This document shows positions 2,656 through 61,236 of a DNA stretch of 64,000 nt, piece by piece. Both the position numbers and the translations under genes were made by a program. Every line of letters starts with the position of its first letter. Position 1 is the stretch's first letter. Location: sequence record OQ599310. The stretch is one strand, 5' to 3'. The notes under the pieces are model-generated. The model was not told the DNA's origin. It worked only from the letters and a program-made list of their open reading frames with translations, and made no database searches. This stretch comes from Escherichia phage 55.

Positions 2656-2709
2656 TAATTTAAGTAAGACCTGCAAAAACCATCGCATCAATTAACGCGA
2701 GATGCAAAA

Positions 2710-3870
2710 ATGAACACTTTTAAAATCGGAACGAATTTTGATTTAGCTCTTCTTGATAAAATCGTAGAGCTCAATAAAACCTATCCTAATAGCTTGATAA
2801 ACGAAGTATATGGCTCTACAAGAGAAATGGCTTTTGTAGCAGCCAGACCTGATTTTAGGCTTCCTGACGTTGACAAAAAGATGTTAGAAGACTACGTTAA
2901 ACGTTGTAACGAATTAGGTATTTGCTTTAACTATACACTCAACACGATAAATCCTGGTTCAAAAAGAGAACTAGTTGAGTGGAAGAAGAAAGCTATTCAG
3001 GATTATGTTCAGTATCTTTGGTCAATAGGCGTATGGCGTATTACTATCGCTAACCCTGTTGTTATGGAAATTGTTCGTGAAGTCAATAAAGATATTGAGA
3101 TTGAAGTTTCAACAATTCTACATGTCGATGCTGTAACTCAAATCAAATACTTGCACGACCAATATAACATCAAAAAAGTCTGTTGCGGAATTCATAAGAA
3201 CCGTTCAGTTTCTTTCCTGAAGCGTGCAGCAGAGTTTTGCAATAAGAACAATATAATATTTGAAGTTCTTGTAAATGAGTTCTGTTCTAATGCTGGTAAA
3301 GGGTATACAACACATTGTAGTTATCGTGACTCTTGCTATATTTTCCATAGTACTGATGTTACCGCTGATGATGCTAAATCCTTAAATGGATATCCAATGC
3401 AGCACTGTATTAAAGCTCGTGATACAGATCCATTTAACTGGTTGAGAACTCGTTTTGTTCGTCCTCAAGATTTGAAACTTTATAATGATATTGGTATCAC
3501 TCAATTCAAAGTTTCAGGACGTACAGGTAGCACAGACTACATTTTGAAAGTTCTTGAAGCATACGCTTCTGAAAAGTTTGAAGGTAATTTGTTAGAACTG
3601 TGGAAGCCTTTAGAGACTATTTTCACTCTTGAAAACGAAACTGAGTTTTCACATACAGTAAATATTGAAACCTCTTTGTTAGATGGCTTTTTAGAAAAAA
3701 GGTGGTTCAGACATCCAGATTTTGATTGTGCTAATGAAATCTGTGGGTCAACGTGTACATATTGTGAAAGGTATTATAAACGTCAATTATCTAAAAACGG
3801 GTTAGCAGAAAACTCCATATCTATTATTGATATAACTAGCTCTGATGACGCTTTGAGATACCCGGAATGA
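2710..3870 (+). CDS. Cys-rich protein with divergent peptidase-U32-like motifs (family that includes Fe-S dependent hydroxylases RlhA/TrhP/UbiU-V); function unknown
   Basis: Segments FNYTLNTI, EVLVNEFCSNAGKGYTTHCSYRDSC and FKVSGRTGSTDY resemble the U32 core and GR motifs; assignment is from memory of the family signature and is tentative. Confidence 0.4.
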   Translation: MNTFKIGTNFDLALLDKIVELNKTYPNSLINEVYGSTREMAFVAARPDFRLPDVDKKMLEDYVKRCNELGICFNYTLNTINPGSKRELVEWKKKAIQDYVQYLWSIGVWRITIANPVVMEIVREVNKDIEIEVSTILHVDAVTQIKYLHDQYNIKKVCCGIHKNRSVSFLKRAAEFCNKNNIIFEVLVNEFCSNAGKGYTTHCSYRDSCYIFHSTDVTADDAKSLNGYPMQHCIKARDTDPFNWLRTRFVRPQDLKLYNDIGITQFKVSGRTGSTDYILKVLEAYASEKFEGNLLELWKPLETIFTLENETEFSHTVNIETSLLDGFLEKRWFRHPDFDCANEICGSTCTYCERYYKRQLSKNGLAENSISIIDITSSDDALRYPE

Positions 3871-4106
3871 TTTCTAGAAAAAGTTTTAATTATAAACTTA
3901 ACGAAGAGATTTTGACTATGAAACTGAACACTAACGAACAAATTCTTAAAAAGGCCCTTATGGGCCTGTTTGAAACCAAAGCGGCTAAAGTGATTAAAGA
4001 ACCTGTTCAATTGGAATACTACACTGATGCATTCCTTCATAGTGTTCTTGGAAGTATAGATTCTGAAGCTTTACGTTATATCAACATTGCCAAGAAATTC
4101 AAATAA
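3867..4106 (+). CDS. hypothetical protein (79 aa)
   Basis: ORF with ATGA start overlap to upstream gene. Confidence 0.4.
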   Translation: MISRKSFNYKLNEEILTMKLNTNEQILKKALMGLFETKAAKVIKEPVQLEYYTDAFLHSVLGSIDSEALRYINIAKKFK

Positions 4107-4148
4107 GCTTTATGAATTGAGTATATAATAAATTGTATTGAGGTAAAC

Positions 4149-4865
4149 ATGGGAAAACATAACACAATGAAATATATCAAAGCCGCAGATTTTCAAACCG
4201 CATTTAAAGCAGTCAATCGTGAAATTTTAGAAAACCCGGAATTCGTAACCGATTCTCGTATTGGACGTTGTAATGAAATTGGGTCTATGACAGTAGTTGT
4301 TGACAATCCATCATCATTCAAAATGACCGACCCACGTATTAACCGCATCTCTTATGAATATGCCGAAGACTTCTGGAAGTTTATGATTTCTGGTGGTACT
4401 GATGCAGAAGAAGCGTTTAAGGCATATCCTAATGTCGCTAAATTTATTTCTAAACCTAAATCAGACGCTTTGCCTGCAAACTTCAACACTTTCTACGGTC
4501 CTCGCATTGCGGCCCAATTACCAGCTCTTCTAAAAGAACTTAAAGAGAAACCTAACTCTCGAAGAGTTGTGTTCCAAATTCTAGAAAGTTCTGATCAGGC
4601 TTTGCTTGATTCGGACGAAACACTTGAATATCCATGTACTGACTCAGTAACTTATTATATTCGTGATGGTAAGCTTTATACCCACTGCCATATGCGTTCT
4701 CAGAACTGTGCTGTTGTTATGCAGTTGGATTTTTATCTCCAAGGAAAATTACTTCATTATATCGCTAACGAATGCGGTGTAGAAGTTGGTGATTATACTC
4801 ATACCATGGTAAGTGCCCATGTGTTTGAACGTGATTTTGATTATGTTAAAGGATTCCTTGACTAA
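4149..4865 (+). CDS. 42: dCMP hydroxymethylase (thymidylate-synthase-fold), gene 42
   Basis: TS-family core YPCTD...GKLYTHCHMRSQN with Cys nucleophile; size 238 aa; sits upstream of uvsX as gene 42 does in T4. Confidence 0.7.
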   Translation: MGKHNTMKYIKAADFQTAFKAVNREILENPEFVTDSRIGRCNEIGSMTVVVDNPSSFKMTDPRINRISYEYAEDFWKFMISGGTDAEEAFKAYPNVAKFISKPKSDALPANFNTFYGPRIAAQLPALLKELKEKPNSRRVVFQILESSDQALLDSDETLEYPCTDSVTYYIRDGKLYTHCHMRSQNCAVVMQLDFYLQGKLLHYIANECGVEVGDYTHTMVSAHVFERDFDYVKGFLD

Positions 4866-39751: not shown

Positions 39752-42700
39752 TTATGCTAAACGAACGATATAGTTAAAAGCAACGTTTTTAACTGTGTTT
39801 TCTGTATTTCCTGTGGCATTTACAGTTATTGTATGTCCATGGGAACCAATTGCAACAGTATGAGAATGAGCACCAATACCTACCGAATGGGTATGAGCAC
39901 CAATACCTACCGTATGAGCATGGTTACCCGTAGAGCTAGTAGTTCCTGACCAACTATGGGTGTGGGCACCGTCATTTGATGTTTTACCGACCTTAGTTGC
40001 TAAAGTCGAACCAGTGATACCTGAGTTAATTTTAGCATATGAGTTTGCACCTATCGTAGTAACCCCGTCTCTAAACAAACCGTCTGCCCATGCAGCAATG
40101 ACCTGTGGACCTGAACGCGCGTGTTGGTGAGCTCCTGCGGAACTAGTATTACCACTCACTGTATGGGTATGGTTACCAGTGGTATTACTGGTCTTAGTAC
40201 CATAATCAAATCTTGAAGTCGTTTTGCTACCGTAATCAAAACTAGAAGTGGTCTTAGTACCCAAATCTGTGCTTGATGCACTTGCACTATGGCTATGTGA
40301 CTTAACACCGTCTGCTTCTGTACTTAATACAGCGCGCCCAGATGGTTTACCCTTGATAGTTTGACCACGCATATCAGGCAGAGCGCCAGAAGGATACACC
40401 GCAGCTAACTTAGGATACAAGCCAGTATCAAATGTTTGGCCTTCCATTATGGCATAACCTTCAGGAGGTGTATCAGTAGGCCAAGGAATCGGAGCACCAA
40501 TTGGATAACTTGAGACAATATCAGTTTTAAGTGATTCAATTGTACTATTTAAGTTGGCAAAATTACCAGAACCACCAGTAATGTTACCGTCTGTACCTAA
40601 ATAAACTGAACCCCCAGCAGAAATGCGCTTAGGAGATATAAAATCACCAGAACGTGTAAATTCCCAGCCTAAATCTTTTATAGTTGCGCCTGTTGAACTT
40701 CCGTCTCCACCTTCATGATAATGAACTCTGAAGTTACCGCCATTTATTAAAGTACCTAAAGAATAACAGCTATTTCCTTGAACATAACGTTGTTTTAAAA
40801 TAGGAACGTAAGTACTTGTATCTGTGCGATTAATATTCATATAGAACGGAGCACGAACGTTTTCATTATTTTGTGAAGCAAAAGACCCTGCACCAGCCGG
40901 GCGAACGGTGTCAGTACATTCAGCATCAATATAAGCTGCTTGTCCTACCTGCATACGGTAATTAGGAGAAATACGACTATGACTAGTAACAACAACAAGT
41001 TTGTTATCATTGTCCACAGTAATCATATTACCGCCAGCGCCATCATCGCCTAACGTGACAGAATGGCGCATTTGTACCATACCATTATTAAGACTAATAC
41101 TTAATGGACGGAGATTGCTTATTCCACCTGATTCTCCAGCATCTTTAGGAGTCGGGATAATATGCAATGCCGCCTCTGAACGACGGAAAATAGCACCATA
41201 TTCAGCATTCCAAATTCTTAACGCATCTGCAGTTCCGCCAAACTTAGCCTGGCCATTTACTGTCATGCCATTATTAACACTCAAAGAAGATTCAGTTGTA
41301 ATAGAACCAGAAGCAACAATACTACCTGAAGTTAATAAACCGCCATTAACTCGGAATTGAATAGGTCCGACAGTAGAACCTACACCAGGAGCAACTCGTT
41401 GAGAATAAAAATGGTAACCTTGTCCATCTGATACTTCAAAAACTGTTTCACGGGAATGATCGCCAGATGCGTTAAAGGCATTACCCCATGCTTTAACAGT
41501 TACATAACTCTTATTCTGGCCTGCTCGAGTGCCGCCTTCCCAAAGGATTTGTTTGGTGCCATCAATCGTGGTAGTTGCTGAAAAAGTCAAACCTGCTGTT
41601 GAGTTATTAGCTGCTAAATATACGCCGTTATATATTGAAAGCTGCTTAACAGATGTAATACCGCCATCAGCATAAAACCTTACATTATTAGCGCCTGTTA
41701 CTAGTTTAAGAACACCGGGGTTAATTTCCATACCTTCTTGGGTATTAATATTCATTTGGCCTTTACCGCGGAAATAGTGCGACATTTTTCCACCAGAGTT
41801 ATAGCCAATATGCGTCCGACCGTCCCCTGCGTTATTCACATCCGCTTGAGTTTGGACTGATAAAAATGCAGCATTAGTACCAGGCATAATCCATGTAGTG
41901 CCTTGGTCTTCTGAACGTCCAAATAACGCTTTACGAGTACTACGGAAACTGTCAGGAGTAATAGAAGCAACAGAATAACCACCGCCAACTAAATCATAAA
42001 CTCCTTGTTTAATATATTTCAGACCTGTTACAGTGTCACCGAGAACAAGATACTTATCGCCCATTACACCGACGTTACCATAATCGCTAGACGGGAAATC
42101 TGTAGTGAATGTACCTAATGCAAGGCTATTACGGCCAGCCATTCGACCATCATTACGAATACCATACTGTTTTGACTGTGGAGTATTACCTGTCCACCAA
42201 GACATTTCATCAGCTTGGCCTAATTGAGCAGTACAAAGCTCATGCCACATAGTGCCACCGGATTTGGCACGAACTCTACGAAGATAGTTTACACCATTCG
42301 TTTCACCGGTGCCTGGGTATACATAGTTAACTAATGAATCCGTATCATATACACCAAAGGCTTTTCCACCGTGAATAACTGTATCAACTGCAATGCGTTT
42401 AGTTACTAACGAATCTGATGCTAAAATACGGTTAGCCTGAAATTCGCCTCCATTTATAGAACGGAAATAGAATTCACTATTAGTAGTGCTTCCTGTTCCT
42501 TGTCTAACCCTAAGGCGTATTTCACCATCAGTTGTAGTTTGAGGACGAGCATATATAACGCCTCGTTCAGTGCCATCGGCATTTTCAAACCATAAATGGG
42601 CATTTGCAGTATCGTTTGTTGCTCTTGTATAAAATGAACCCTGTGTAGATCTGAAAACTTTTGCAGTTACGCCATCAGTAGAACCAATTGGTCCGTTTAC

Positions 42701-42943
42701 AGTCATTCCACCTGTTTGTACATAATCGCCATTTAATCTCAAAAGTCCGTTAATAGTAACGTTGCCGTCAACTTGCCCGCCCTTAGCAAAGCCTAGGCTA
42801 ATAATATTACCGAGGTCATCTTTAGTAAAAAGAGTTCGATCCTTTAAGTTTATCGCTAATTCGCCTTCGGCTAATTGTGCTGCAGTAGGATTAACTCCTG
42901 CCACTTTGCTTCTTTTAAATTGTATCTGTTTTAATGTAGCCAT
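39752..42943 (-). CDS. 37: gp37 long tail fibre distal subunit
   Basis: 1063 aa; C-terminal His-x-His repeat region ([24 protein letters not shown]) typical of the gp37 tip. Confidence 0.9.
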
Positions 42944-47800: not shown

Positions 47801-48691
47801 GCCTTCCCATATACGCCATAAACTATTTGCAGCATCAAAAACAAAAAACGCGTCAGAGTCATTTCTGCCTTCGGCAATATGAGTCCCGACTTCACCAATA
47901 GACGTTGTATCATCAAATGTTTTAACAATTGTATGATACAGTGGGTTTAATCTATCTAAATCGACTAGGCTGATTATATCACCATTGTTAGCATTACGTG
48001 GAAGTGTAATGTTGATTGGTGCTGCACTAGTAAAACGACGAACGATAAAATCATTTGCTTGTGCTTGATATGGTGTCGCAGGTGTAACAGTGATTGATTC
48101 TTTACCATAATCGGTAATATACATCTGCCACAAACGATTACTAAACACAAACAATAGTTGTGAACGTGGGCGCGTCATTAAAACCGTACGAACTTGTTCA
48201 CCTCTAAAGTTTAAAATACTCTGTACAGACGCGTTAATCTGTACTTTAACTGTCCCGGTTCGTCCACCAATATCAGCCAAAACAACAGTATCACCATCAA
48301 CTGGAGTATTTGGCAATGTAAAAACCATATCATTGCCGGCACCAGTGTTAACCGAAATCGATTCACCTGAAGAAAGTTGACAAGTCCCAGAAGCGACAGT
48401 TATCCATTGTGCATCAGTACGAACTGCACGCCATTGTAAAAGGTTAAATGCCCCGGAAGGAGACACGATATCATTTATTGCTTGATATAAACGGTTGTCA
48501 TAAAGAACAACAAATCCTTTGTTATATCCACGCGTAGAATCATATACTTGAACGGTGTTTTCTTGTACCAGGAAGTCAACGTTTACGCCATCAGTACCTA
48601 CTGTACGGTCGGCTAATGCTACGTTAACAATCTTGTCGCCACCGGCGTCCAGACCGTCTTCGGCTCTGAACTTACGTTTGATGTCGGCCAT
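44816..48691 (-). CDS. 34: gp34 long tail fibre proximal subunit
   Basis: 1291 aa, first gene of the tail fibre block. Confidence 0.9.
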   Translation of the reverse strand: MADIKRKFRAEDGLDAGGDKIVNVALADRTVGTDGVNVDFLVQENTVQVYDSTRGYNKGFVVLYDNRLYQAINDIVSPSGAFNLLQWRAVRTDAQWITVASGTCQLSSGESISVNTGAGNDMVFTLPNTPVDGDTVVLADIGGRTGTVKVQINASVQSILNFRGEQVRTVLMTRPRSQLLFVFSNRLWQMYITDYGKESITVTPATPYQAQANDFIVRRFTSAAPINITLPRNANNGDIISLVDLDRLNPLYHTIVKTFDDTTSIGEVGTHIAEGRNDSDAFFVFDAANSLWRIWEGDQKSRLRIIRADSNIRPNEEVLIFGTNNATTGTINLTLPTGILSGDTVKISMNYMRKGQTVKIKAAEGDTIASTVALLQFPKRSEYPPDAQWVSVTELEFNGTTSYVPVLELAYIEDTVAGTRYWVVQQNVPTVERVDAGTDATRARLGVIALATQAQANVDLENTPAKEVAITPETLANRTATEARRGIAKIATTAQVNQNSTATFVDDTIVTPKKLNERTATETRRGLAEIATQVETDAGLDDTTIITPKKLQARQGSETLSGIVKYVSTTSATPAATRGAAGTNVYNKDTTTLTISPKALDQYKATYAQQGAVILAVDSEVIAGQSQAGYSHAVVTPETLHKKTSTDGRIGLIEIATQAETNAGTDYTRAVTPKTLNDRKATEGLSGIAELATQVEFDTGTDDTRISTPLKIKTHFDSSDRTSVNSDSGLIEEGTLWNHYTLDISKANETQRGTLRVATQAESNAGTLDDVLITPKKLLGTKSTETSEGVIKVATRAETVTGTSANTAVSPKNLKWIVQSEPTWAATTAIRGFVKTSSGSITFVGNDTVGSTQPLESYEKNSYAISPYELNRVLANYLPLKAKAVDSNLLDGLDSSQFIRRDIAQTVNGSLTLTQQTNLSAPLVSSSTATFGGSVSANSTLTISNTGTATRLIFEKGPQTGTNPAQTMTIRVWGNEFGGGSDTTRSTVFEVGDETSNHFYSQRNKAGNITFSINGTVMPINVNASGTLNANGVATFGRSVTANGEFISKSANAFRVISGDYGFFIRNDGGSTYFMLTASGDQTGGFNGLRPLSINNKSGQITIGEGLIIANGATINSGGLTVNSRIRSQGTKTSDLYTRAPTSDNVGFWSIDINDSATYNQFPGYFKMVEKTNEVTGLPYLERGEEVKSPGTLTQFGNTLDSLYQDWITYPTTPEARTTRWTRTWQKTKNSWSSFVQVFDGGNPPQPSDIGALPSDNATIGNLTIRDFLRIGNVRIIPDPVNKSVKFEWIE

Positions 48692-48721
48692 TCGTTTTTC
48701 CTTTATTGTTTCAATAATACT

Positions 48722-48729
48722 TATTTATA
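48722..48729 (-). promoter_or_regulatory. late promoter TATAAATA for gene 34
   Basis: plus strand TATTTATA at 48722-48729. Confidence 0.5.
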
Positions 48730-48733
48730 CCAG

Positions 48734-48762
48734 TTTACGCTTTCAAATGAGTGTGTTACTAT
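48734..48762 (+). promoter_or_regulatory. T4-type early promoter for rnh (divergent from the gene 34 late promoter)
   Basis: GTTTAC then TACTAT at 17 bp. Confidence 0.45.
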
Positions 48763-48794
48763 AGTCAAGTTGACTAACTGAACAAGAGGTTCAT

Positions 48795-49712
48795 ATGGAT
48801 TTAGAAATGATGTTGGATGAAGATTACAAAGAAGGTATTGCACTTGCTGACTTTAGTAACATTGCATTGGCAGCCGCATTAAACAACTTTGAAGACGGCG
48901 ATAAAATTACTGTTCCAATGGTTCGACATGTAATCTTGAACTCAATTCGTAAAAACGTAGTGATGTTCCGTAAGCAAGGCTACACAAAATTTGTATTGTG
49001 TATGGATAATGCTACTTCAGGTTATTGGCGTCGTGACTTTGCTTACTATTACAAGAAAAATCGTAAAACCGATCGTGAAGCTTCAAAGTGGGATTGGGAA
49101 GGATATTTTACTGCACTCCATCAAGTTGTTGATGAGATTAAGAAATACATGCCATACGTTGTAATGGATATTGACAAGTATGAAGCGGATGACCATATTG
49201 GTGTATTAACTAAATATTTGTCATTAGCTGGTCATAAGGTATGTATTGTTGCATCAGATGGTGACTTTACACAATTACACAAATATCCTAACGTTAAACA
49301 GTGGTCGCCACCACAGAAAAAATGGGTTAAAATTAAGAACGGTTCTGCTGAAATTGATTGCATGACTAAAATTCTTAAAGGTGACCGTAAGGATGGTGTT
49401 GCATCTGTTCGAGTTCGTGGCGACTTCCGGTTTACCAGAGTTGATGGTGAACGAACTCCAAGCATGAAAACATCAATTATTGAAGCAATTGCTAATGACC
49501 GTTCTCAAGCTGAAGTATTATTAAGTGCAGAAGAATATAAACGGTATCAAGAAAATTTGGTTCTCATTGATTTTGATTATATCCCTGATAATATTGCTTC
49601 AACCATTATAGAGTATTATAACTCATATAAACAACAACCTAAAGGCAAGATTTATTCATACTTTGTAAAATCTGGTCTTTCTAAATTAACAAGTGTAATT
49701 AATGAATTCTGA
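48795..49712 (+). CDS. rnh: RNase H (FEN-like 5'-3' exonuclease)
   Basis: 305 aa; MDLEMMLDEDYKEGI, SDGDFTQLHKYPNVKQWSP match T4 RNase H. Confidence 0.9.
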   Translation: MDLEMMLDEDYKEGIALADFSNIALAAALNNFEDGDKITVPMVRHVILNSIRKNVVMFRKQGYTKFVLCMDNATSGYWRRDFAYYYKKNRKTDREASKWDWEGYFTALHQVVDEIKKYMPYVVMDIDKYEADDHIGVLTKYLSLAGHKVCIVASDGDFTQLHKYPNVKQWSPPQKKWVKIKNGSAEIDCMTKILKGDRKDGVASVRVRGDFRFTRVDGERTPSMKTSIIEAIANDRSQAEVLLSAEEYKRYQENLVLIDFDYIPDNIASTIIEYYNSYKQQPKGKIYSYFVKSGLSKLTSVINEF

Positions 49713-49719
49713 GGTAAAC

Positions 49720-49989
49720 ATGGCTAAGAAAGAAGCAGTTGAATTTAATCAAGATGTGCATGGTGAAGAACTGGCTAAACTAGTCAAGGAAGCTTCCGAT
49801 AACAAACTTAAAATTTCTGGTTATAATGAACTGATTAAAGACATTCGTACTCGTGCTAAAGAAGAGCTTGGCGTCGATGGAAAAATGTTTAATCGTTTGT
49901 TAGCTCTTTATCATAAAGACGCTCGTGACCAATTTGAAGCTGAAAACGAAGAGGTAGTCGAGCTTTATGACACAGTTTTCACTAAGTGA
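49720..49989 (+). CDS. dsbA: DsbA dsDNA-binding late transcription protein
   Basis: 89 aa from internal ATG with GAGGT RBS; position after rnh. Confidence 0.65.
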   Translation: MAKKEAVEFNQDVHGEELAKLVKEASDNKLKISGYNELIKDIRTRAKEELGVDGKMFNRLLALYHKDARDQFEAENEEVVELYDTVFTK

Positions 49990-50305
49990 TATTAAACCGG
50001 TTGATGAGGCCGGTTTATCTGAACAAGAATTAGCAGTAAAACACGATAAAGATGATATCGCTAAATTGCTTGACCGACAAGAAAACGGATTCATTATCGA
50101 ATCCATGGTTGAACAATTTGGTATGTCTTATTTAGAAGCAACAACTGCTTTCTTGGAAGAAAATTCTATTCCAGAAACACAATTTGCTAAATTTATTCCT
50201 ACAGGAATTGTTGAAAAAATTACAAGCGAAGCAATTGACGAAAACATGCTTCGCCCATCAGTTGCTCGTGGTGAAAAAACTAATACGTTAGATTTCTTAT
50301 TATGA
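49967..50305 (+). CDS. 33: gp33 late-transcription co-activator
   Basis: 112 aa; position between dsbA and 59. Confidence 0.6.
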   Translation: MTQFSLSDIKPVDEAGLSEQELAVKHDKDDIAKLLDRQENGFIIESMVEQFGMSYLEATTAFLEENSIPETQFAKFIPTGIVEKITSEAIDENMLRPSVARGEKTNTLDFLL

Positions 50306-50985
50306 AATACGTTGTGTATAAAACTACCAATAAAATAAATGGTAAAATTTATATAGGCGTACACAAAAAACATAAAGAGAAAGATTGGTATATTGGATCA
50401 GGCCGCGCTATATTAGCGGCCAAAGCTAAATATGGACTAAAAAATTTTTATACCGAAATTCTTTATGAATATGATAATGACAAGGACGCCTATAAAAAAG
50501 AAGCAGAATTGGTTAACGAAGATTTTGTTTTGCGAGATGATACTTATAACTTAGTTCCCGGTGGTAAAGGTGGTCCTGGTAAAAAACAAAGTGATGAAGC
50601 TAAAAGGTCTATTTCACTTTCTAAATTAGGTAAACCTAGATCTGAAGAGACTAAGGCTAAAGTATCTAAAACAAGACTAGAAAGAAAAATACCGTCACCT
50701 AATAAGGGTAAGAAACTATCTGAAGCTCACAAATTGGCCTTGAGTAAAGTCCGAAAAGGGCGAAAAACGAATAAGCCGATGCCTGATTCAACCAAAGAAG
50801 CTCTTAGAATAGCAAATTCAAAGCCGCATTCTAAAGAAAGAACTATTAAAAAACAAAAACCTATAATTATTGATGGTATAAAATACGCCTCGTGTAAAGA
50901 AGTTTCAAATGTTTTTAATATTTCTGCGTCTTTAGTTACATATAGACTTAAATCTTCAAAATGGTCCGGATGGAAATATGATTAA
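50302..50985 (+). CDS. free-standing GIY-YIG homing endonuclease (Seg-like)
   Basis: N-terminal VVYKTTNKINGKIYIGV GIY-YIG motif; basic C-terminal half with NUMOD-like repeats; overlaps both neighbours. Confidence 0.7.
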   Translation: MKYVVYKTTNKINGKIYIGVHKKHKEKDWYIGSGRAILAAKAKYGLKNFYTEILYEYDNDKDAYKKEAELVNEDFVLRDDTYNLVPGGKGGPGKKQSDEAKRSISLSKLGKPRSEETKAKVSKTRLERKIPSPNKGKKLSEAHKLALSKVRKGRKTNKPMPDSTKEALRIANSKPHSKERTIKKQKPIIIDGIKYASCKEVSNVFNISASLVTYRLKSSKWSGWKYD

Positions 50986-51631
50986 AATACGCATGCCTCC
51001 TGATGGAGAACGTTATATTAATGGAAAATCGGTATATAAACTATACTTGATGTGCAAAAACCATTTTGGTGGTCGGTATGACGTAATCAAATATAACTGG
51101 TGCATGCGTGTTTCGGATAATGCGTATCAAAAACGCCGAGATAAATATTTCTTTGAGAAACTAGCAGAGAAATATAAGTTAAAGGAACTCACCTTGATAT
51201 TCATCAGTAACTTAGTTGCTAACCAAGATGCATGGATTGGTGAGATATCAGACGCTGATGCATTAGTTTTCTATAGGGAATATATTGGACGTCTCAAACA
51301 AGCCAAGGAGACGTTTGCCGAAGACATACGTAACATCTACTATTTCAGTAAGAAAGTGGAAGTTAGTGCGCTTCAAGAGATATTTGATTATAATAATAAA
51401 GTTCAGTCGAGCTACATATTTAAATTGCTACAAAGCAATATAATTTCATTTGAAACCTTCTTGTTGTTGGATTCATTCTTGAATATTATAGATAAGCATG
51501 ACGAACTTACTGACAATTTAGTCTGGCAAAATTATTCTACCAAATTAAAGGCATATCGAAAAATACTTCAAATCGATGGAAATGCTGCTAAGAAATTGTT
51601 CATAGAAACAATCAAATCATGTAAGTATTAA
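50978..51631 (+). CDS. 59: gp59 helicase loader
   Basis: 217 aa; strong match to T4 gp59 (YKLYLM.K, DVIKYNWCMRVSD, SYIFKLLQSNIISFETF). Confidence 0.85.
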   Translation: MIKIRMPPDGERYINGKSVYKLYLMCKNHFGGRYDVIKYNWCMRVSDNAYQKRRDKYFFEKLAEKYKLKELTLIFISNLVANQDAWIGEISDADALVFYREYIGRLKQAKETFAEDIRNIYYFSKKVEVSALQEIFDYNNKVQSSYIFKLLQSNIISFETFLLLDSFLNIIDKHDELTDNLVWQNYSTKLKAYRKILQIDGNAAKKLFIETIKSCKY

Positions 51632-51660
51632 GCTTTATTTCTTGTGTGTTAAAATTACTT

Positions 51661-51668
51661 TATAAATA
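51661..51668 (+). promoter_or_regulatory. possible late promoter TATAAATA upstream of gene 32
   Basis: exact TATAAATA about 80 bp upstream of gene 32 start. Confidence 0.35.
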
Positions 51669-51747
51669 AATCATACCAGCTACGAGGTATAAGTGTCGTA
51701 GCAACCAACTGTAAATAAATTAAATAATCTAAATAAAGGTAAATATA

Positions 51748-52695
51748 ATGTTTAAACGTAAATCTACTGCTGACCTCGCTGCTCAAATGGCTAAACTGAA
51801 CGGTAACAAAGGTTTCTCTTCAGAAGATAAAGGCGAATGGAAGCTGAAGCTAGATGCATCCGGTAATGGTCAAGCGGTAATTCGTTTCTTGCCAGCAAAA
51901 ACTGATGATGCACTACCATTTGCAATTCTTGTTAACCATGGTTTCAAGAAAAATGGTAAATGGTATATTGAAAATTGCTCTTCTACACATGGTGATTATG
52001 ACTCTTGTCCTGTATGTCAGTACATTATTAAAAATGACCTGTACAATACCAACAAAACTGAATATTCTCAACTGAAACGTAAAACTTCTTATTGGGCTAA
52101 TATTCTGGTTGTTAAAGACCCTCAAGCTCCAGATAATGAAGGTAAAGTATTTAAATATCGTTTCGGTAAAAAGATTTGGGACAAAATCAATGCAATGATT
52201 GCAGTTGATACCGAAATGGGTGAAACTCCAGTTGATGTTACTTGTCCGTTTGAAGGTGCTAACTTCGTTCTGAAAGCTAAGCAGGTTTCTGGTTTTAGCA
52301 ACTATGACGAATCTAAATTCTTGGGTCAATCTGAAATTCCTCGTATTAATGACGAAGCATTCCAGAAAGAACTATATGACCAGATGGTAGACCTTACTAC
52401 TTTGACGGCTAAAGACCAGTTCAAATCCTTTGAAAAATTAAATGAATCTTTCGCTAAGGTTCTTGGTACTGCCGCTCTTGGTGGTGCAGCAGCTGCAGCA
52501 GCTTCTGTTGCAGCAGCTGCAGCAGCTTCTGTTGCAGCTGCTGCAGCTTCTGTTGCAGATAAAGTTGCTTCTGACCTTGACGATTTTGATAAAGACATGG
52601 AAGCCTTTAGTTCTGCAAAAACTGAAGACGACTTCATGAGCTCTACCTCATCTTCTGATGACGGCGACCTCGATGACCTGTTAGCTGGTCTATAA
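51748..52695 (+). CDS. 32: gp32 single-stranded DNA-binding protein
   Basis: 315 aa; N-terminal [23 protein letters not shown]; zinc site [15 protein letters not shown]. Confidence 0.9.
52486..52560 (+). repeat. in-frame tandem repeat (about 27 bp, roughly three copies) encoding [23 protein letters not shown] inside gene 32
   Basis: GCAGCAGCTGCAGCAGCTTCTGTTGCA repeated. Confidence 0.7.
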
Positions 52696-52701
52696 TAAAT
52701 T

Positions 52702-52724
52702 GGGAGACTTCGGTCTCCCTTTTG
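52702..52724 (+). terminator. rho-independent terminator after gene 32
   Basis: GGGAGACTTCGGTCTCCC then TTTT. Confidence 0.7.
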
Positions 52725-52751
52725 AGTATCTGTAAATTGCCGAAAAAAGTT

Positions 52752-52781
52752 GTTTACTTCTTTCCTAGATGTGTTACTATA
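52752..52781 (+). promoter_or_regulatory. T4-type early promoter
   Basis: GTTTAC then TACTAT at 17 bp. Confidence 0.5.
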
Positions 52782-52810
52782 GACCTATCAAAACAAATGA
52801 GGAAATCATA

Positions 52811-53173
52811 ATGGAAACCGGAAAAACGTACATCATCAACCCTGCATTTAAAGCTACCTTCGCTAACGAATGCCCACAAAATGCTGAAATGCTGTCTTTG
52901 ATTGAGCTTCATGGCCCTAGTTTTGTTGTAAAAGACATGAACACAGAGTACGACGATGATAAATGTGTAACACGTGTAACTATGCGAGACGGCACTGAAT
53001 TGGGTTTTGACGGTAAGCCGGGTTCATATTTTGAGCTTTATGACGATGAGTTCAAATACTTCATCGAGGTATCCCCAGAGTCTATTTCTAAACAGTCACT
53101 CATCTTTGAAGTTACTGAAGATAACGCCCGTGATGTGATTGCAGAAATTAAAGAAATTTTTGGAATAAAATAA
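52811..53173 (+). CDS. hypothetical protein, tandem paralog A
   Basis: METGKTYIINPAFK...LIELHGPSFVV...EFKYFIE shared with next ORF; identical RBS context. Confidence 0.5.
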   Translation: METGKTYIINPAFKATFANECPQNAEMLSLIELHGPSFVVKDMNTEYDDDKCVTRVTMRDGTELGFDGKPGSYFELYDDEFKYFIEVSPESISKQSLIFEVTEDNARDVIAEIKEIFGIK

Positions 53174-53198
53174 GTACAGCACAAATGAGGAAATCAAA

Positions 53199-53603
53199 AT
53201 GGAAATCGGAAAATCTTATATCATTAGCCCTTTATTTAAAGACGACTTTGTTCAAGAAGCACCACATAATAACGCTAAGATGTTAAAACTGATTGAACTC
53301 CATGGGCCTAGTTTTGTTGTAAACGGAATGGAACCTGATTATGATAGCGATACGTCAAACGTAGTAAGTGTAACTATGGAAGATGGTACTGTATGTTCTG
53401 CCGGTGGTGGAATTGAAACTTATTTTGAGATTTATCCTGACGAGTTTAAATACTTTATTGAGTACTTTACTGAGGTAGATTTAGTAAAGCCTCAACCTAC
53501 TAACGAAGGTATAACTTTAGGTGTAACAAAAATCCATTGTATCGTAGATGAAACCAACGTCGACGAAATCATCAAACTTTTGCAAAAAACTTTTAAAAAG
53601 TAG
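53199..53603 (+). CDS. hypothetical protein, tandem paralog B
   Basis: MEIGKSYIISPLFK...LIELHGPSFVV...EFKYFIE. Confidence 0.5.
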   Translation: MEIGKSYIISPLFKDDFVQEAPHNNAKMLKLIELHGPSFVVNGMEPDYDSDTSNVVSVTMEDGTVCSAGGGIETYFEIYPDEFKYFIEYFTEVDLVKPQPTNEGITLGVTKIHCIVDETNVDEIIKLLQKTFKK

Positions 53604-53632
53604 TGTACAATCAGATAGGGCTATGTTATAGT
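53604..53632 (+). promoter_or_regulatory. early promoter with TAGGGCTA/TAGCCCTA inverted repeat
   Basis: GTGTAC then TATAGT at 17 bp. Confidence 0.45.
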
Positions 53633-53665
53633 AGCCCTATCAAATCAAAAGTGAAGGAGAATAAA

Positions 53666-53914
53666 ATGAGATTGCAACGACAGAGCATCAAAGATTCTGA
53701 AGTTAGAGGTAAATGGTACTTCAACGTCATTGGTAAAGATGCTGAACTCCTTGAACAAGCTGAAGAAGCTTTACGTGAAATGGGATGGAATGAAGAATGT
53801 GATGGATGTCCGCTCTACGAAGATGGTGAAAGCGCAGGATTCTGGATTCACCATTCTGATGTTGAATCGTTTAAAGCCGATTGGAAAGTTGTTAAGAAAA
53901 ATCTGAGGAAATAA
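53666..53914 (+). CDS. hypothetical protein
   Basis: AAGGAG RBS. Confidence 0.4.
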   Translation: MRLQRQSIKDSEVRGKWYFNVIGKDAELLEQAEEALREMGWNEECDGCPLYEDGESAGFWIHHSDVESFKADWKVVKKNLRK

Positions 53915-53916
53915 TT

Positions 53917-54109
53917 ATGATTAACTGTCTATTTTTCCGTTATCTTAGAACTTTGCTTTCAGAAATAGAAAAGAAACAATATCATGAACTTGCGTTTGGA
54001 TGTTCAGCTGTACGATTAAATGAATGCCCAAGAAAACAAATTTTTGTTATTGATTCAAGAATGTTTGAATTCCAATACTATATGATCAAAAAATATCTGA
54101 GGAAACAAT

Positions 54110-54126
<17 letters not shown>
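53917..54126 (+). CDS. hypothetical protein (questionable)
   Basis: ORF between two copies of a repeated junction sequence. Confidence 0.25.
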
Positions 54127-55792
<1,666 letters not shown>

Positions 55793-55794
55793 AA

Positions 55795-56048
55795 TGATTT
55801 TACGTTTTATTAATTCATATGGCACCACAATTTTTGAAATGAAAAATCCAAGTGAACTGGATATCCCTTCACCGAATAGTGAAATCACAGTTAAAGGTGA
55901 ACGATTCATTTGCCATTCACATGAACGAATTTATGAATATCGTGAATTCTGTGGTGGATTCGGTATGGAAAAAGAGCCTCTGGTTTATTTCGATATTACA
56001 GTCTTGACTCCTAAAGAATATGAAGAAATTATTGCTGAGGATAATTAA
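55795..56048 (+). CDS. hypothetical protein
   Basis: ORF starting just after td stop. Confidence 0.4.
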
Positions 56049-56135
56049 CGCTTCAGTTTAAAAGTGTATAATAAATTAACGGGATAAATACTATCCCGTT
56101 TGGAGTAATGTCTATCAACCTATACTGAGGAATAT

Positions 56136-58391
56136 ATGCAAGTAACTAAGAGCAGTGGTGTATCCCAAAATTTTGATGCACAGAAAATTATTCAAGTCTT
56201 AACTTGGCAATGTGAAGGAACACAAATTGACCCATATGAATTGTACGAAGAAATTAAGACCCATCTTGTCGACGGGATGAGCACCAAAGATATCCAGAAG
56301 ATTTGTATTAAAGTTGCAGCTAACTTGATTTCTGTCGAAGAACCTGACTATCAATATGTTGCCGCTAAAGGATTAATGTTTGCACTTCGTAAAGATGTGT
56401 ATGGGCAGTTTGAACCGCCTGCTTTTATCGACCATATTTCTTATTGTGTTAATGAAGGCAAATACGACCCTGAGCTGTTGTCTCAATATTCAGCAGAAGA
56501 AATCATTTATCTCGATTCACAGATTAAACATGAACGAGACTTTGACCTGACTTATGCTGGTGCTATGCAGCTTAAAGAAAAATATCTAGTTAAAGATAAA
56601 ACAACTGGGAAGATTTATGAAACTCCACAGTTTGCTATCATGGCTATTGGCATGGCCTTACATCAAGACGAAACTCATGACCGTTTGAAACATATTATTC
56701 GTTTTTATGATGCCGTTTCTACTCATCAAGTTTCATTGCCAACCCCAATTATGGCAGGTGCTCGTACTCCAACTCGCCAGTTCTCTAGTTGTGTAGTTAT
56801 TGAAGCCGGTGATTCGTTAAAATCTATTAACAAAACTTCAGCATCAATTATTGAATATATTTCTAAACGAGCTGGTATTGGTATCAACGTTGGTATGCTT
56901 CGTGCAGAAGGTTCTAAGATTGGTATGGGTGAAGTTCGACATACAGGTGTTATTCCATTCTGGAAACATTTCCAAACTGCAGTAAAATCTTGTTCTCAAG
57001 GTGGTATTCGTGGTGGTGCTGCTACAGCATATTATCCGATGTGGCACTTAGAAGTAGAGAACCTATTAGTTCTGAAAAATAACAAAGGTGTGGATGAAAA
57101 CCGTATTCGACATATGGACTACGGAATTCAGATTAATGACCTTATGATGGAACGCCTTGGTAAAAATGATTATATTACTTTATTTAGCCCTCACGAAATG
57201 TCAGGCGAACTATACTACTCGTTCTTTGAAGATCAAGATAAATTCCGTGAGCTTTATGAGAAAGCTGAAAAAGACCCAACAATCAGAAAGAAAAGAATCA
57301 AAGCACTAGAACTCTTTGAATTGTTCATGACTGAACGCTCTGGTACTGCTCGAATTTATCCACAATTCGTTGATAACACGAACAACTACACTCCATTTAT
57401 TCGTGAAAAAGCTCCAATTCGACAGAGTAACTTATGTTGTGAAATCGCTATTCCAACTAATGATGTGAATGGTCCTGATGCTGAAATTGGTTTATGCACA
57501 TTATCTGCATTCGTGTTAGATAAATTTGATTGGCAAGACCAAGATAAAATTAATGAACTTGCTGAAGTACAAGTACGTGCACTTGATAACCTGTTAGACT
57601 ATCAAGACTATCCGGTTCCAGAAGCTTTAAAAGCTAAAAAGCGTCGTAATCTTGGTATTGGTGTTACGAACTATGCTGCATGGTTAGCTTCTAACTTTGC
57701 TTCATATGAAGACGCTAACGATTTGACTCATGAATTGTTTGAGAGATTGCAATATGGCCTTATCAAAGCATCAATCAAACTCGCCAAAGAAAAAGGACGT
57801 TGCGAGTATTATTCAGACACTAAATGGTCTAGAGGCGAATTACCTATCGACTGGTACAATAAAAAGATTGACCAAATCGCAGCCCCAAACTATGTCTGTG
57901 ACTGGGAAGAACTTCGAGCTGAACTCAAAGAACATGGAATTCGTAACTCAACGTTATCTGCACTCATGCCTTGTGAGTCAAGCAGTCAAGTATCAAACTC
58001 TACAAACGGGATTGAACCGCCGCGTGGTCCAGTAAGTATTAAAGAATCTAAAGAAGGCAACTTCCGACAAGTAGTTCCTAATATTGAACACAACATGGGT
58101 CTTTATGACTATGCGTGGAAACTCGCTAAGAAAGGTAATAAGCCTTATCTGACACAAGTTGTTATCATGTTAAAATGGGTGTGCCAATCTGCTTCTGCTA
58201 ATACATACTACGACCCTTCAGTCTTTGAGAAAGGCAAAGTGCCAATGTCTGTAATGCTTGATGACTTGCTTTACTTCTGGTACTTTGGTGGTAAGAACCT
58301 TTACTATCATAACACTCGAGATGGTTCTGGTACAGATGACTATGAGTTAGAAACGCCTAAAGCTGAAGATTGCTCCGCTTGTAAGCTTTAA
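56136..58391 (+). CDS. nrdA: ribonucleotide reductase class Ia alpha subunit
   Basis: 751 aa; NLCCEIAIP active-site motif; C-terminal CSAC-like tail. Confidence 0.95.
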   Translation: MQVTKSSGVSQNFDAQKIIQVLTWQCEGTQIDPYELYEEIKTHLVDGMSTKDIQKICIKVAANLISVEEPDYQYVAAKGLMFALRKDVYGQFEPPAFIDHISYCVNEGKYDPELLSQYSAEEIIYLDSQIKHERDFDLTYAGAMQLKEKYLVKDKTTGKIYETPQFAIMAIGMALHQDETHDRLKHIIRFYDAVSTHQVSLPTPIMAGARTPTRQFSSCVVIEAGDSLKSINKTSASIIEYISKRAGIGINVGMLRAEGSKIGMGEVRHTGVIPFWKHFQTAVKSCSQGGIRGGAATAYYPMWHLEVENLLVLKNNKGVDENRIRHMDYGIQINDLMMERLGKNDYITLFSPHEMSGELYYSFFEDQDKFRELYEKAEKDPTIRKKRIKALELFELFMTERSGTARIYPQFVDNTNNYTPFIREKAPIRQSNLCCEIAIPTNDVNGPDAEIGLCTLSAFVLDKFDWQDQDKINELAEVQVRALDNLLDYQDYPVPEALKAKKRRNLGIGVTNYAAWLASNFASYEDANDLTHELFERLQYGLIKASIKLAKEKGRCEYYSDTKWSRGELPIDWYNKKIDQIAAPNYVCDWEELRAELKEHGIRNSTLSALMPCESSSQVSNSTNGIEPPRGPVSIKESKEGNFRQVVPNIEHNMGLYDYAWKLAKKGNKPYLTQVVIMLKWVCQSASANTYYDPSVFEKGKVPMSVMLDDLLYFWYFGGKNLYYHNTRDGSGTDDYELETPKAEDCSACKL

Positions 58392-58441
58392 GAATTTTGT
58401 TTATAATTGACTCATGGATGAGTCACTATTGAGAGAATATA

Positions 58442-59620
58442 ATGAGTACAGTTTTTAATACCCAAAAAGTTGATGTTTTGAATGAACCAATGTTCTTTGG
58501 TTCCGGTCTTGGCCTTGCGCGTTACGATATTCAACGCCATAAAGTTTTTGAAGAGCTTATTGAAAAGCAATTGTCGTTTTTTTGGCGCCCTGAAGAGGTA
58601 AACTTGATGTTGGACTCTGCGCAGTTCAATAAGCTTCCACAGTTCCAACAGAACATCTTTACGAACAACCTTAAGTATCAATCATTATTGGATTCTATCC
58701 AAGGCAGGGCACCATCTGCGGTACTTATGGCATTGCTTTCCGACCCTTCATTAGATACATGGGTTGCTACATGGACATTCAGTGAAACCATTCACTCTCG
58801 TTCATATACTCATATCATGCGAAATCTTTATACTGATCCATCGAAGGTATTTGATGAGATTGTATTAGATGAAGCAATTATGAAACGTGCGGAATCAATC
58901 GGCAAATATTATGATGATGTTCTAGTTAAAACACGTGAATGGGAAAATGCTAAAGAAATTTTTAAATGTTTTTCCGAAAATGAATATGATTTGGATGCAT
59001 ATTCAAATAGTCTTATGCATGTGGAAGAATGTAAACGTGCATTAATGAAGTCTCTTTATCTCTGCTTACACGTTATTAACGCCTTAGAAGCTATTCGTTT
59101 TTACGTATCATTTGCATGTACTTTCAACTTCCATAAGAACATGGAAATCATGGAAGGTAATGCAAAGATTATGAAGTTTATCGCTCGTGACGAACAACTC
59201 CACCTTAAAGGCACTCAGTACATTATTCGACAGCTCCAACTTGGTGTTGATGGGGATGAATGGGTTCAAATTGCTAAAGAGTGTGAGCAAGAAGCAGTAG
59301 ATATCTTTATGGAAGTAAATAGTCAAGAGAAGGAATGGGCTGCACACCTCTTTAAAGACGGTACATGTCCAGGTATCAATACGCAGAGTATGTGTGCTTT
59401 TGTTGATTACTTGACTGTGTCTCGTATGAAACAGTGCGGTTTGCCATGCCCAATCACTGATGCTCCGACCAAGCATCCGTATCCTTGGATTCGTGAATAT
59501 CTGAACTCTGATTTAGTTCAAGCAGCTCCTCAGGAAGTTGAAATCAGTTCTTATCTTGTCGCACAAATTGATAATGATGTAGACCAAAATGTAATCAATT
59601 CATACAAAAAATATTTCTAA
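58442..59620 (+). CDS. nrdB: ribonucleotide reductase class Ia beta subunit, uninterrupted
   Basis: 392 aa ferritin-like diiron protein (SETIHSRSYTHI); continuous ORF. Confidence 0.95.
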   Translation: MSTVFNTQKVDVLNEPMFFGSGLGLARYDIQRHKVFEELIEKQLSFFWRPEEVNLMLDSAQFNKLPQFQQNIFTNNLKYQSLLDSIQGRAPSAVLMALLSDPSLDTWVATWTFSETIHSRSYTHIMRNLYTDPSKVFDEIVLDEAIMKRAESIGKYYDDVLVKTREWENAKEIFKCFSENEYDLDAYSNSLMHVEECKRALMKSLYLCLHVINALEAIRFYVSFACTFNFHKNMEIMEGNAKIMKFIARDEQLHLKGTQYIIRQLQLGVDGDEWVQIAKECEQEAVDIFMEVNSQEKEWAAHLFKDGTCPGINTQSMCAFVDYLTVSRMKQCGLPCPITDAPTKHPYPWIREYLNSDLVQAAPQEVEISSYLVAQIDNDVDQNVINSYKKYF

Positions 59621-59624
59621 GGAC

Positions 59625-59646
59625 GGGACTTCGGTCCCACTTTATT
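59625..59646 (+). terminator. stem-loop GGGACTTCGGTCCC after nrdB
   Basis: hairpin with UUCG loop, weak T tail. Confidence 0.45.
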
Positions 59647-60057
59647 ATGAAAGATATTGCCGCCGAATATTCCTTTATTAAATATACAGAATTGGAGCTA
59701 TTAGAAGATGCAACAATTAAAACAGTTGATGTCCCTAATAAGAAAAATGTCATATATGCTATTGCTATAGACGATGAACTTGTGTATATTGGTAAAACCA
59801 AGAATTTAAAGAAACGCATTAACTATTATCGAACAGCCATAAATCGAAAAGACCAGACTTCAGATTCAAGAAAATCACTTATGATTTTGGATGCCTTAAT
59901 GCAAGGCAAAAAGGTTGAATTCTGGGCCCGCCAATGTTTTGACCTTTCAGTCACCAACGAACTTGGTTCAATGACCATCGCAACAATGGACCTTGAAGAA
60001 CCGCTTTTTATCAAAAAGTTCAACCCGCCTTGGAATATCCAACATAAGAAAAAGTAG
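59647..60057 (+). CDS. denA: endonuclease II (GIY-YIG family)
   Basis: 136 aa; position after nrdB; VIYAIAIDDELVYIGKT GIY-YIG-like. Confidence 0.75.
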   Translation: MKDIAAEYSFIKYTELELLEDATIKTVDVPNKKNVIYAIAIDDELVYIGKTKNLKKRINYYRTAINRKDQTSDSRKSLMILDALMQGKKVEFWARQCFDLSVTNELGSMTIATMDLEEPLFIKKFNPPWNIQHKKK

Positions 60058-60086
60058 TTTACACACCACAAGGATTGTGGTACAAT
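60057..60086 (+). promoter_or_regulatory. T4-type early promoter with CCACAA/TTGTGG inverted repeat
   Basis: GTTTAC then TACAAT at 18 bp. Confidence 0.5.
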
Positions 60087-60102
60087 TTAAAAAACTAACT
60101 GA

Positions 60103-61236
<1,134 letters not shown>

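Follow-up and report, generated by a model that had tools for sequence, protein, structure and literature searches.

Escherichia phage 55 (sequence record OQ599310) carries, between genes 33 and 59, an open reading frame (ORF) whose product we read as a Seg-type homing endonuclease of the I-TevI family. The stretch analysed, 64,000 nucleotides long, is called the window throughout, and coordinates refer to it unless another locus is named. In the reading that we favour, with a probability of roughly 0.7, the gene forms a promoterless cassette at the 33/59 junction, its product would cut the 5′ segment of sensitive gene 59 alleles, and genomes that carry the cassette (carriers) would be protected by a short patch of substitutions in that segment. 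This is an ordinary kind of phage mobile element, already annotated as 'homing endonuclease' in public records. What appears to be new here is a clade dedicated to the 33/59 junction, its capture of the gene 59 start, and a target prediction drawn from the carrier-linked patch. The features of the junction are as follows.

49967–50305, + strand: gene 33 (late-transcription co-activator), the upstream neighbour (PF16805, 3.5e-26).
50301–50305, + strand: left TATGA direct repeat, within which the endonuclease gene starts and gene 33 stops.
50301–50976, + strand: 676-bp insertion relative to the empty 33/59 junction, from alignment to LF82-1 and nine other endonuclease-less genomes; its boundary is ambiguous within the 5-bp repeat.
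50302–50985, + strand: putative homing endonuclease ORF, 227 aa, Seg-type and of the I-TevI family (ORF listing, TIGR01453, PHROG 314, and the ratio of non-synonymous to synonymous polymorphism, pN/pS).
50977–50981, + strand: right TATGA repeat, containing the gene 59 start codon, with the endonuclease TAA following at 50983–50985.
50978–51631, + strand: gene 59 (helicase loader), next gene downstream and predicted to hold the target (PF08993/PF08994, ~1e-45 to 1e-49).
51037–51069, + strand: carrier-linked substitution patch, gene 59 nt 60–92; predicted recognition or cleavage region in its protected form (flank association, database 51-mers).

A precise insertion with a sporadic distribution

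From 49700 to 51700 the window is 99.5% identical to Shigella phage SHSML-52-1, a Mosigvirus of the RB69 group, and on this sequence match phage 55 is itself a Mosigvirus. The SHSML-52-1 record labels the counterpart ORF 'homing endonuclease'. In endonuclease-less relatives, genes 33 and 59 overlap by ATGA, and the window adds exactly 676 bases at this site. An earlier reading of the window, made from its letters and ORFs and called the sequence-only reading here, had stated that the ORF overlaps both neighbours, and so it does. Its ATG (50302–50304) shares an ATGA with the TGA stop of gene 33 (50303–50305), and its TAA stop (50983–50985) reaches 8 nt into gene 59, which starts with an ATG at 50978. 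Overlapping a stop codon on one side and a start codon on the other, the ORF is sited between genes, in neither an intron nor an intein.

The region matches 170 phage records, 152 of them at ≥95% identity, and the insert is present in 28 of these 152 (25 distinct phage names). The population counts are of GenBank phage records, including RefSeq/GenBank duplicates and near-clonal series; they rest on GenBank because IMG/VR gave only one close Mosigvirus locus. RB69 is without the endonuclease gene. Presence is polymorphic even within species recognised by the International Committee on Taxonomy of Viruses (ICTV): in shsm521 it is found in SHSML-52-1 and not in FP43, in JS09 it is found in SSE1 and not in JS09 itself, and in mar005p1 it is found in WFbE185 and not in mar005P1. 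The proposal of a mobile-gene insertion is thus upheld by a precise 676-bp empty site, by sporadic presence and by absence from RB69. Comparison of the junction among relatives, which had been put forward as one way to check the proposal, found an ORF that is not conserved in all of them.

The 11 intact copies differ pairwise by at most 43 nt, and from the window copy by at most 39 nt, with a pN/pS of 0.12. On this ratio the copies are under purifying selection, which argues that the protein is still functional. The copies in the window, TH12, OLB35 and SHSML-52-1 are 0–2 nt apart and sit in left flanks that are at least 20 nt apart. For 11 of 12 carriers the nearest relative by left flank is an endonuclease-less genome (tied with another carrier in two cases). 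Near-identical copies in such unlike flanks indicate that the gene and its surroundings do not have a single shared history.

A Seg-type protein of I-TevI architecture

The ORF is predicted to encode a full-length GIY-YIG endonuclease of the I-TevI family, in three parts.

50302–50571, + strand: predicted GIY-YIG catalytic domain, about residues 1–90 (AlphaFold2 model, Foldseek, invariant residues).
50572–50856, + strand: basic linker with four NUMOD3-like helices, about residues 91–185 (32% Lys+Arg, AlphaFold2 helices).
50848–50982, + strand: predicted C-terminal helix-turn-helix DNA-binding domain of I-TevI type, residues 183–227 (PF20987, phmmer, Foldseek).

The NCBIfam model TIGR01453 ('group I intron endonuclease', I-TevI family) matches residues 4–226 at 74.7 bits against a cutoff of 56.05. 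PF20987, the I-TevI DNA-binding domain, matches residues 183–226 at 45.7 bits against a cutoff of 27 (5.8e-12), and PHROG 314 'homing endonuclease' matches at 1e-55. The N-terminal motif has the pattern VVY-x10-YIG (VVY6, Y17-I-G19). Residues Y6, Y17, G19, H21, E67, Y82 and N83 are invariant in an alignment of 51 homologues. N83 is aligned with the YN of an I-TevI-like protein, and E67 falls within ~2 alignment columns of the second Glu in the ERE motif of that protein. We take this second Glu to be E75; the catalytic Glu and Asn of I-TevI are E75 and N90.

An AlphaFold2 model from the 51 homologues reached a predicted local distance difference test score (pLDDT) of 90.4. Its N-terminal unit is modelled as beta-beta-alpha-beta-alpha (strands 2–10 and 16–23, helix 35–44, strand 49–57, helix 60–70), and the linker as four helices (98–108, 115–127, 141–153 and 162–173). 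The top structural matches of the model in the PDB, found with Foldseek, were to I-TevI, first 1i3j (probability 1.0) and 1mk0/1ln0 (probability 1.0, template modelling score 0.66 on the target, 96 aligned columns, E-value 7e-3), and then to I-HmuI. A phmmer search of the PDB retrieved the I-TevI DNA-binding domain (1i3j, E = 4.4e-4) and not the catalytic domain, so the catalytic fold is established through the predicted structure. The term NUMOD3-like denotes a resemblance only, in repeats seen by eye and as four predicted helices. The GIY-YIG motif first noticed at the N-terminus is borne out by the TIGR01453 score, by the structural match to I-TevI and by the invariant tyrosines. The basic DNA-binding repeats noticed alongside it correspond to residues 91–185, with their 32% Lys+Arg and four predicted helices.

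Homologues at the same junction in other lineages

A tblastn search found no match above 60% identity in phage records outside the 28 carriers. The next-best homologues, at 46–57% identity, all lie between genes 33 and 59, overlapping gene 33 by 4 nt and gene 59 by 8 or 26 nt. They occur in Dhakavirus IME540, in four metagenomic T4-like contigs and in a contig with a protein assigned by NCBI to Serratia phage vB_SspM_LC53. Such homologues are infrequent, with 4 of ~49 Dhakavirus records and 1 of 33 PG7-like Enterobacter phages carrying one, and genes 33 and 59 abut in twenty other T4-like IMG/VR loci. The sequence-only reading had regarded the insertion as specific to the lineage of phage 55; the same-junction homologues in Dhakavirus, PG7-like Enterobacter phages, Serratia phage vB_SspM_LC53 and metagenomic contigs refute this. 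Its statement that T4 has no seg gene at this junction holds, since T4 gene 33 runs straight into gene 59, with a 4-nt overlap and no gene in between. The contrast with T4 needs an amendment, in that T4 segG lies at the adjoining 59/32 junction, and the neighbourhood is therefore a known target for seg-type genes. In the literature searched, which covered few subscription journals, no paper naming or characterising a seg gene at the 33/59 junction was found.

The ends of the cassette share a recurrent form. In the other lineages the endonuclease gene starts ATGATT, and in five of six it starts with the full ATGATTAA. Gene 59 opens with these same 8 nt, and the cassette in those lineages is thus bracketed by an 8-bp direct repeat. 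In locus L052, the endonuclease gene and gene 59 both start ATGATTCG. Within ATGATTAA, a start codon is accompanied by a TGA and a TAA, one in each of the remaining frames; translation of the upstream gene, and likewise of the cassette, can therefore terminate where the following gene starts. Three nucleotides are deleted at either end of the Mosigvirus copy (MKY versus MIKY at the N-terminus, and WKYD-stop versus WKYHD-stop at the C-terminus).

Two side observations concern this neighbourhood. Dhakavirus-like genomes have an extra ORF of ~205–220 aa between genes 59 and 32, the position of segG in T4. It lies at 3845–4462 in IME540 (L025), at 2700–3335 in LHE83 (L053, where it is annotated 'homing endonuclease') and at 3846–4511 in locus L051; IME540 and L051 thus have mobile-looking genes on both sides of gene 59. 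Separately, gene 59 is annotated from an internal start in the RefSeq record of RB69 (L043, 4729–5256) and in JS09 (L045, 4618–5256). The conserved ATGATTAA start overlapping the gene 33 stop sits upstream, at locus position 4603, and the annotated start looks like a misannotation.

A carrier-linked patch in gene 59

Flanks were aligned from rnh through gene 32 for 12 carriers and 10 non-carriers of Mosigvirus, with association defined as a frequency difference of at least 0.8; across lineages, 2–3 kb of flanking sequence was compared, and the gene 59 patch was the one difference in it that went with carriage of the cassette. Five of 347 polymorphic flank sites associate with the cassette, and all five fall within 51037–51069. 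The changes in carriers are TAC>TAT, CAA>AAC (Q28N) and AAT>GGT (N31G). This clustering was matched in 0 of 2000 label permutations, a statistic that ignores shared ancestry. Mosigvirus sites nearer the cassette (51004–51031) show no association.

Database-wide, the carrier-type 51-mer spanning the patch occurs in 59 records, comprising all 28 carriers and 31 non-carriers (13 of them from the LF82-n series). The RB69-type 51-mer occurs in 96 records at ≥95% identity, none of which is a carrier. In the 22-genome sample, position 51037 had looked like a 'fixed' diagnostic difference. That candidate was rejected database-wide by endonuclease-less phages with the carrier-type 51-mer, which is complete in six such phages (seven records). 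These records weaken the claim for the patch from 'diagnostic' to 'necessary but not sufficient'. Phages of each type can be named: Bas45 (PaulHMueller) has the endonuclease gene, Bas46 (ChristianSchoenbein) lacks it and has a sensitive-type gene 59, and F2 and mobillu lack it and have a protected-type gene 59. LF82-1 is intermediate, having C at 51037 together with AAC/GGT at the two codons.

Comparable patches are found in two further lineages. Dhakavirus carriers and non-carriers differ mainly at gene 59 nt 57–81, including an ATG>CAA change at codon 25 (M25Q), and IME540 is 99.6% identical to LHE83, its closest non-carrier comparator, over gene 59 nt 151–651. All 4 Dhakavirus carrier records, and no others, have the carrier-type 55-mer; the alternative type is present in 40 records, with no carrier among them. 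Among PG7-like phages, carrier L050 and non-carrier L007 share ~68% identity over gene 59 nt 24–87. Outside the patch, identity is 97–100% across the 600 nt upstream and, beyond the patch (gene 59 nt 88 onward), 93–100% per 60-nt bin (almost all ≥97%) for ~1.4 kb. The patches in the three lineages are independent, consist of unlike substitutions, lie on one side of the cassette (downstream), and all end at gene 59 nt ~81–92. The simplest reading of these comparisons is that the enzyme's target lies in the patch segment of gene 59, the patch being either a protected allele or a co-conversion tract between the cut and the cassette.

The patch could also be a scar rather than a target. An active homing endonuclease might recognise a site spanning the 33/59 junction itself, so that the insertion alone would confer protection and the gene 59 patch would reflect co-conversion or hitch-hiking. 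The DNA-binding domain is of I-TevI type, and the I-TevI site spans the insertion site of its intron. Nearly all of the lineages examined share the junction and nt 1–8 of gene 59 (ATGATTAA) in conserved form, both being duplicated around the cassette, and the same patch is found in 31 endonuclease-less Mosigvirus records. Moreover, the L050 patch is closest to the gene 59 of another lineage (81% to L048), as a co-conversion tract would be. We nonetheless consider a junction-spanning site unlikely. The patch is strictly downstream and has the same approximate end in three lineages with differing substitutions, and in Mosigvirus it is the farther cluster that associates with the cassette while the sites at 51004–51031, closer to it, do not. 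Some of the patch changes are also non-synonymous, and one replaces all three nucleotides of a codon within a motif that is otherwise conserved.

A broader picture is also conceivable. The chances seem about even that the gene belongs to an unnamed Seg-type clade that is specialised on the 33/59 junction and spread over at least four lineages of T4-like phages. Members of this clade would insert by capture of ATGATTAA, so preserving the coupled translation of genes 33 and 59, and would have a target less than 100 bp inside gene 59, and each invasion would leave or select different gp59 substitutions (Q28N/N31G in one lineage, M25Q in another).

Proposed expression and homing cycle

No convincing private late promoter (TATAAATA), sigma-70-like promoter or terminator was found in or beside the cassette; the closest + strand TATAAATA is at 51661, ahead of gene 32. 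The 676-bp cassette is accordingly pictured here as a promoterless guest within an rnh-dsbA-33-59 transcription unit. It would take over the former start codon of gene 59, which overlaps the gene 33 stop, and its 3′ end would recreate a gene 59 ATG overlapping the endonuclease TAA. With one start codon reused and another recreated, translational coupling from gene 33 through the endonuclease to gene 59 would be kept, and we infer that the gene is expressed through this coupling.

The setting for homing would be a mixed infection of a carrier with an endonuclease-less relative; T4-like phages have modified cytosine in their DNA. Recognition and cleavage by the enzyme would fall within the opening ~100 bp of the sensitive gene 59 allele (window ~51000–51072). 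Recombinational double-strand-break repair of the T4 type would then copy the carrier genome over the break, installing the cassette along with a short downstream co-conversion tract. Carrier genomes would escape self-cleavage through their substitutions in this segment, which are Q28N and N31G in gp59 together with a silent change.

Several results weigh against this reading. R27, the canonical catalytic Arg of I-TevI, has no alignable counterpart in the clade, which has no invariant Arg and shows a 6-residue gap opposite the KRWKRH segment; T4 SegC, listed as an active enzyme, shows the same N-terminal pattern. The hidden Markov model search for GIY-YIG and NUMOD domains, suggested in the sequence-only reading, succeeded in part. 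TIGR01453 and PF20987 passed their cutoffs, but the Pfam GIY-YIG model PF19835 (SegE_GIY-YIG) stayed below its own (22.4 versus 25 bits), as did the NUMOD3 model PF07460 (18.0 versus a gathering score of 20.4 bits, with no single stretch passing). In AV116 (L033, near locus position 4900, equivalent to window ~50609), a one-base insertion gives the endonuclease gene a +1 frameshift, and its annotation is limited to a 3′ fragment. This may be either a decaying copy or a sequencing error, and as a decaying copy it shows that decay occurs. Beyond the neglect of shared ancestry in the permutations, the 31 endonuclease-less Mosigvirus records with a protected-type patch mean that the patch could predate the gene or reflect simple linkage at 60–90 bp.

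Some of these results fit a different history, in which a formerly mobile gene is now inactive or domesticated, is inherited vertically and is repeatedly lost, its distribution arising from deletion and ordinary recombination. The lack of an identifiable catalytic arginine counterpart and the one frameshifted copy agree with it, as does the conservation of position and overlaps across genera. Much else does not: the pN/pS of 0.12, the copies 0–2 nt apart in flanks at least 20 nt apart whose nearest relatives lack the gene, the low frequencies (28/152, 4/49 and 1/33) with precise empty sites in every lineage, and the independent protective-looking patches. We regard domestication as distinctly improbable.

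Relationship to known endonucleases

I-TevI, the endonuclease of the T4 td intron, has the same order of parts as the window ORF, with a GIY-YIG domain, an extended linker and a C-terminal helix-turn-helix. An I-TevI-like protein, only ~30% identical to the window ORF, also has its C-terminal motif LVTYR.KS.KW. The window ORF is free-standing whereas I-TevI is intron-encoded, and it is without the KRWKRH segment (R27) and the zinc-finger region, having four NUMOD3-like helices instead.

Among the T4 Seg proteins, two were compared directly by name, and SegC is the closer of them, with 33% identity by tblastn and 39% by global alignment. Both SegC and the window ORF show the N-terminal pattern KIY[IV]GVHK...D.Y.GSG...KYG..NF, and both are free-standing and promoterless. 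SegC is not an orthologue, however, as it has another insertion site (between 5.1 and 5.3) and another target, a shorter linker and a divergent C-terminus. It is listed as active in Table 1 of the Edgell review (PMC2988022). The best tblastn match in the T4 record, at 40%, is an unnamed 'homing endonuclease'. T4 SegG, which cleaves T2 gene 32, shares the lifestyle of the window ORF and nearly its neighbourhood, lying on the other side of gene 59. The possibility that the window ORF is a copy of this neighbouring segG was discarded, as there is no significant similarity (BLASTP E = 3.8); the junction and the predicted target gene (59, not 32) differ as well. Judged by insertion site and by these sequence comparisons, in which SegC and SegG were the two compared directly, the window ORF is not orthologous to any named T4 seg gene (segA–G).

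The GenBank annotation of Shf125875 calls the ORF 'SegH; similar to RB3 segH'. The segH of phage PP01 likewise encodes a Seg-type GIY-YIG protein, with 35% identity over 98% of length, but the match is at 42008–42814, with no gene 33 or 59 feature beneath it, and so not at a 33/59 junction. At a mere 35% identity, SegH orthology was rejected, and the GenBank label reflects similarity rather than orthology.

By analogy, the element would resemble the T4 Seg endonucleases, agents of intronless homing (PMC2988022), in its mode of action. Free-standing enzymes typically have targets hundreds to thousands of bp away (PMC2988022), whereas the predicted target of the window ORF is less than 100 bp from the insertion. 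Going by its title, the SegG paper that the same review references concerns marker exclusion and co-conversion, with cleavage far from the segG gene; the mechanism named in this title is the one proposed for the window ORF.

Another idea is that the protein is mainly a regulator, such as a DNA-binding repressor akin to the autorepressor I-TevI, or a weapon against other phages or the host, such as a nuclease that keeps out competing phages, rather than a self-propagating enzyme. Its tight embedding between a transcription factor gene and a replication gene, with translation probably coupled, would suit such a role, and marker exclusion is cited as a consequence of T4 SegG, as far as the reference title in the Edgell review goes. 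Yet there is no hint of a separate target, the comparative signal matches exactly the expectation for self-propagation through gene conversion, and the same cleavage would exclude competitors as a by-product. We give this idea almost no weight.

The element matters for what it may do in mixed infections. Free-standing homing endonucleases determine the survival of alleles in co-infections of related phages, and few outside T4 have a known target. The 33/59 endonuclease gene is widespread in sewage and therapy-candidate coliphages (Mosigvirus, Dhakavirus), beside replication genes, and biased inheritance of the 33–59 region is predicted in cocktails of T4-like phages. If a dedicated clade exists as suggested above, the element would drive local evolution of the gene 41 helicase loader, an important replication protein, and would serve as a marker-exclusion weapon between co-infecting phages. 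No general concept is changed by the finding.

Genomic context

The + strand gene order in the window is rnh (48795–49712), dsbA, gene 33, the endonuclease ORF, gene 59 and gene 32 (51748–52695), a block of T4 type. Base composition gives no sign of foreign origin, the endonuclease gene having 32.5% GC versus 33–35% in adjacent genes. Farther downstream lie the two genes that contain introns in T4 and were read as intronless here.

54932–55792, + strand: td, 286 aa, uninterrupted (PF00303 positions 1–266 of 266 in a single stretch).
58442–59620, + strand: nrdB, 392 aa, uninterrupted (PF00268 positions 9–271 of 281 in a single stretch).

No Rfam family, and hence no group I intron model, scored above threshold in 48000–61000. 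Together with the single-stretch Pfam matches this agrees with the description of td and nrdB as intronless, which is correct but incidental to the endonuclease. In two Mosigvirus carriers of the 33/59 gene, AV115 (L032, 8354–10001) and AV116 (L033, 8355–10002), td is annotated as two pieces with a gene for a 245-aa I-TevI-like endonuclease between them. The arrangement resembles a td intron, by annotation only; if it is real, an intronless td is not genus-wide.

Other nuclease genes vary nearby. In SSE1 (L036, 9811–10001) and WFK (L047, 9113–9325), nrdA.2 is followed by a gene for an HNH or 'group I intron' endonuclease, upstream of nrdA. No endonuclease gene precedes nrdA at this place in the window; 55731–56048 encodes DUF5496, and nrdA follows at 56136. 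Directly after nrdB, at 59647–60057, the window encodes a second GIY-YIG protein (PF01541, 28 bits), labelled 'endonuclease' in the closest relative. By position and size it looks like a homologue of T4 denA (endonuclease II), in which case it would be a housekeeping nuclease and not a homing endonuclease.

Downstream of gene 59, the 3′ part of gene 32 (52482–52558) encodes an Ala-rich C-terminal region with a 21–24-nt tandem repeat in ~3 copies (91–95% matches). Owing to this repeat, gp32 has 315 aa in the window versus 299–300 aa in relatives; LF82-1 is without 45 bp at 52498–52542. Beyond gene 32 are two tandem paralogues of the FRD2 family (frd.2), at 52769–53173 and 53199–53603. SHSML-52-1 has one 387-bp ORF in their place, and the region is highly divergent among Mosigvirus genomes.

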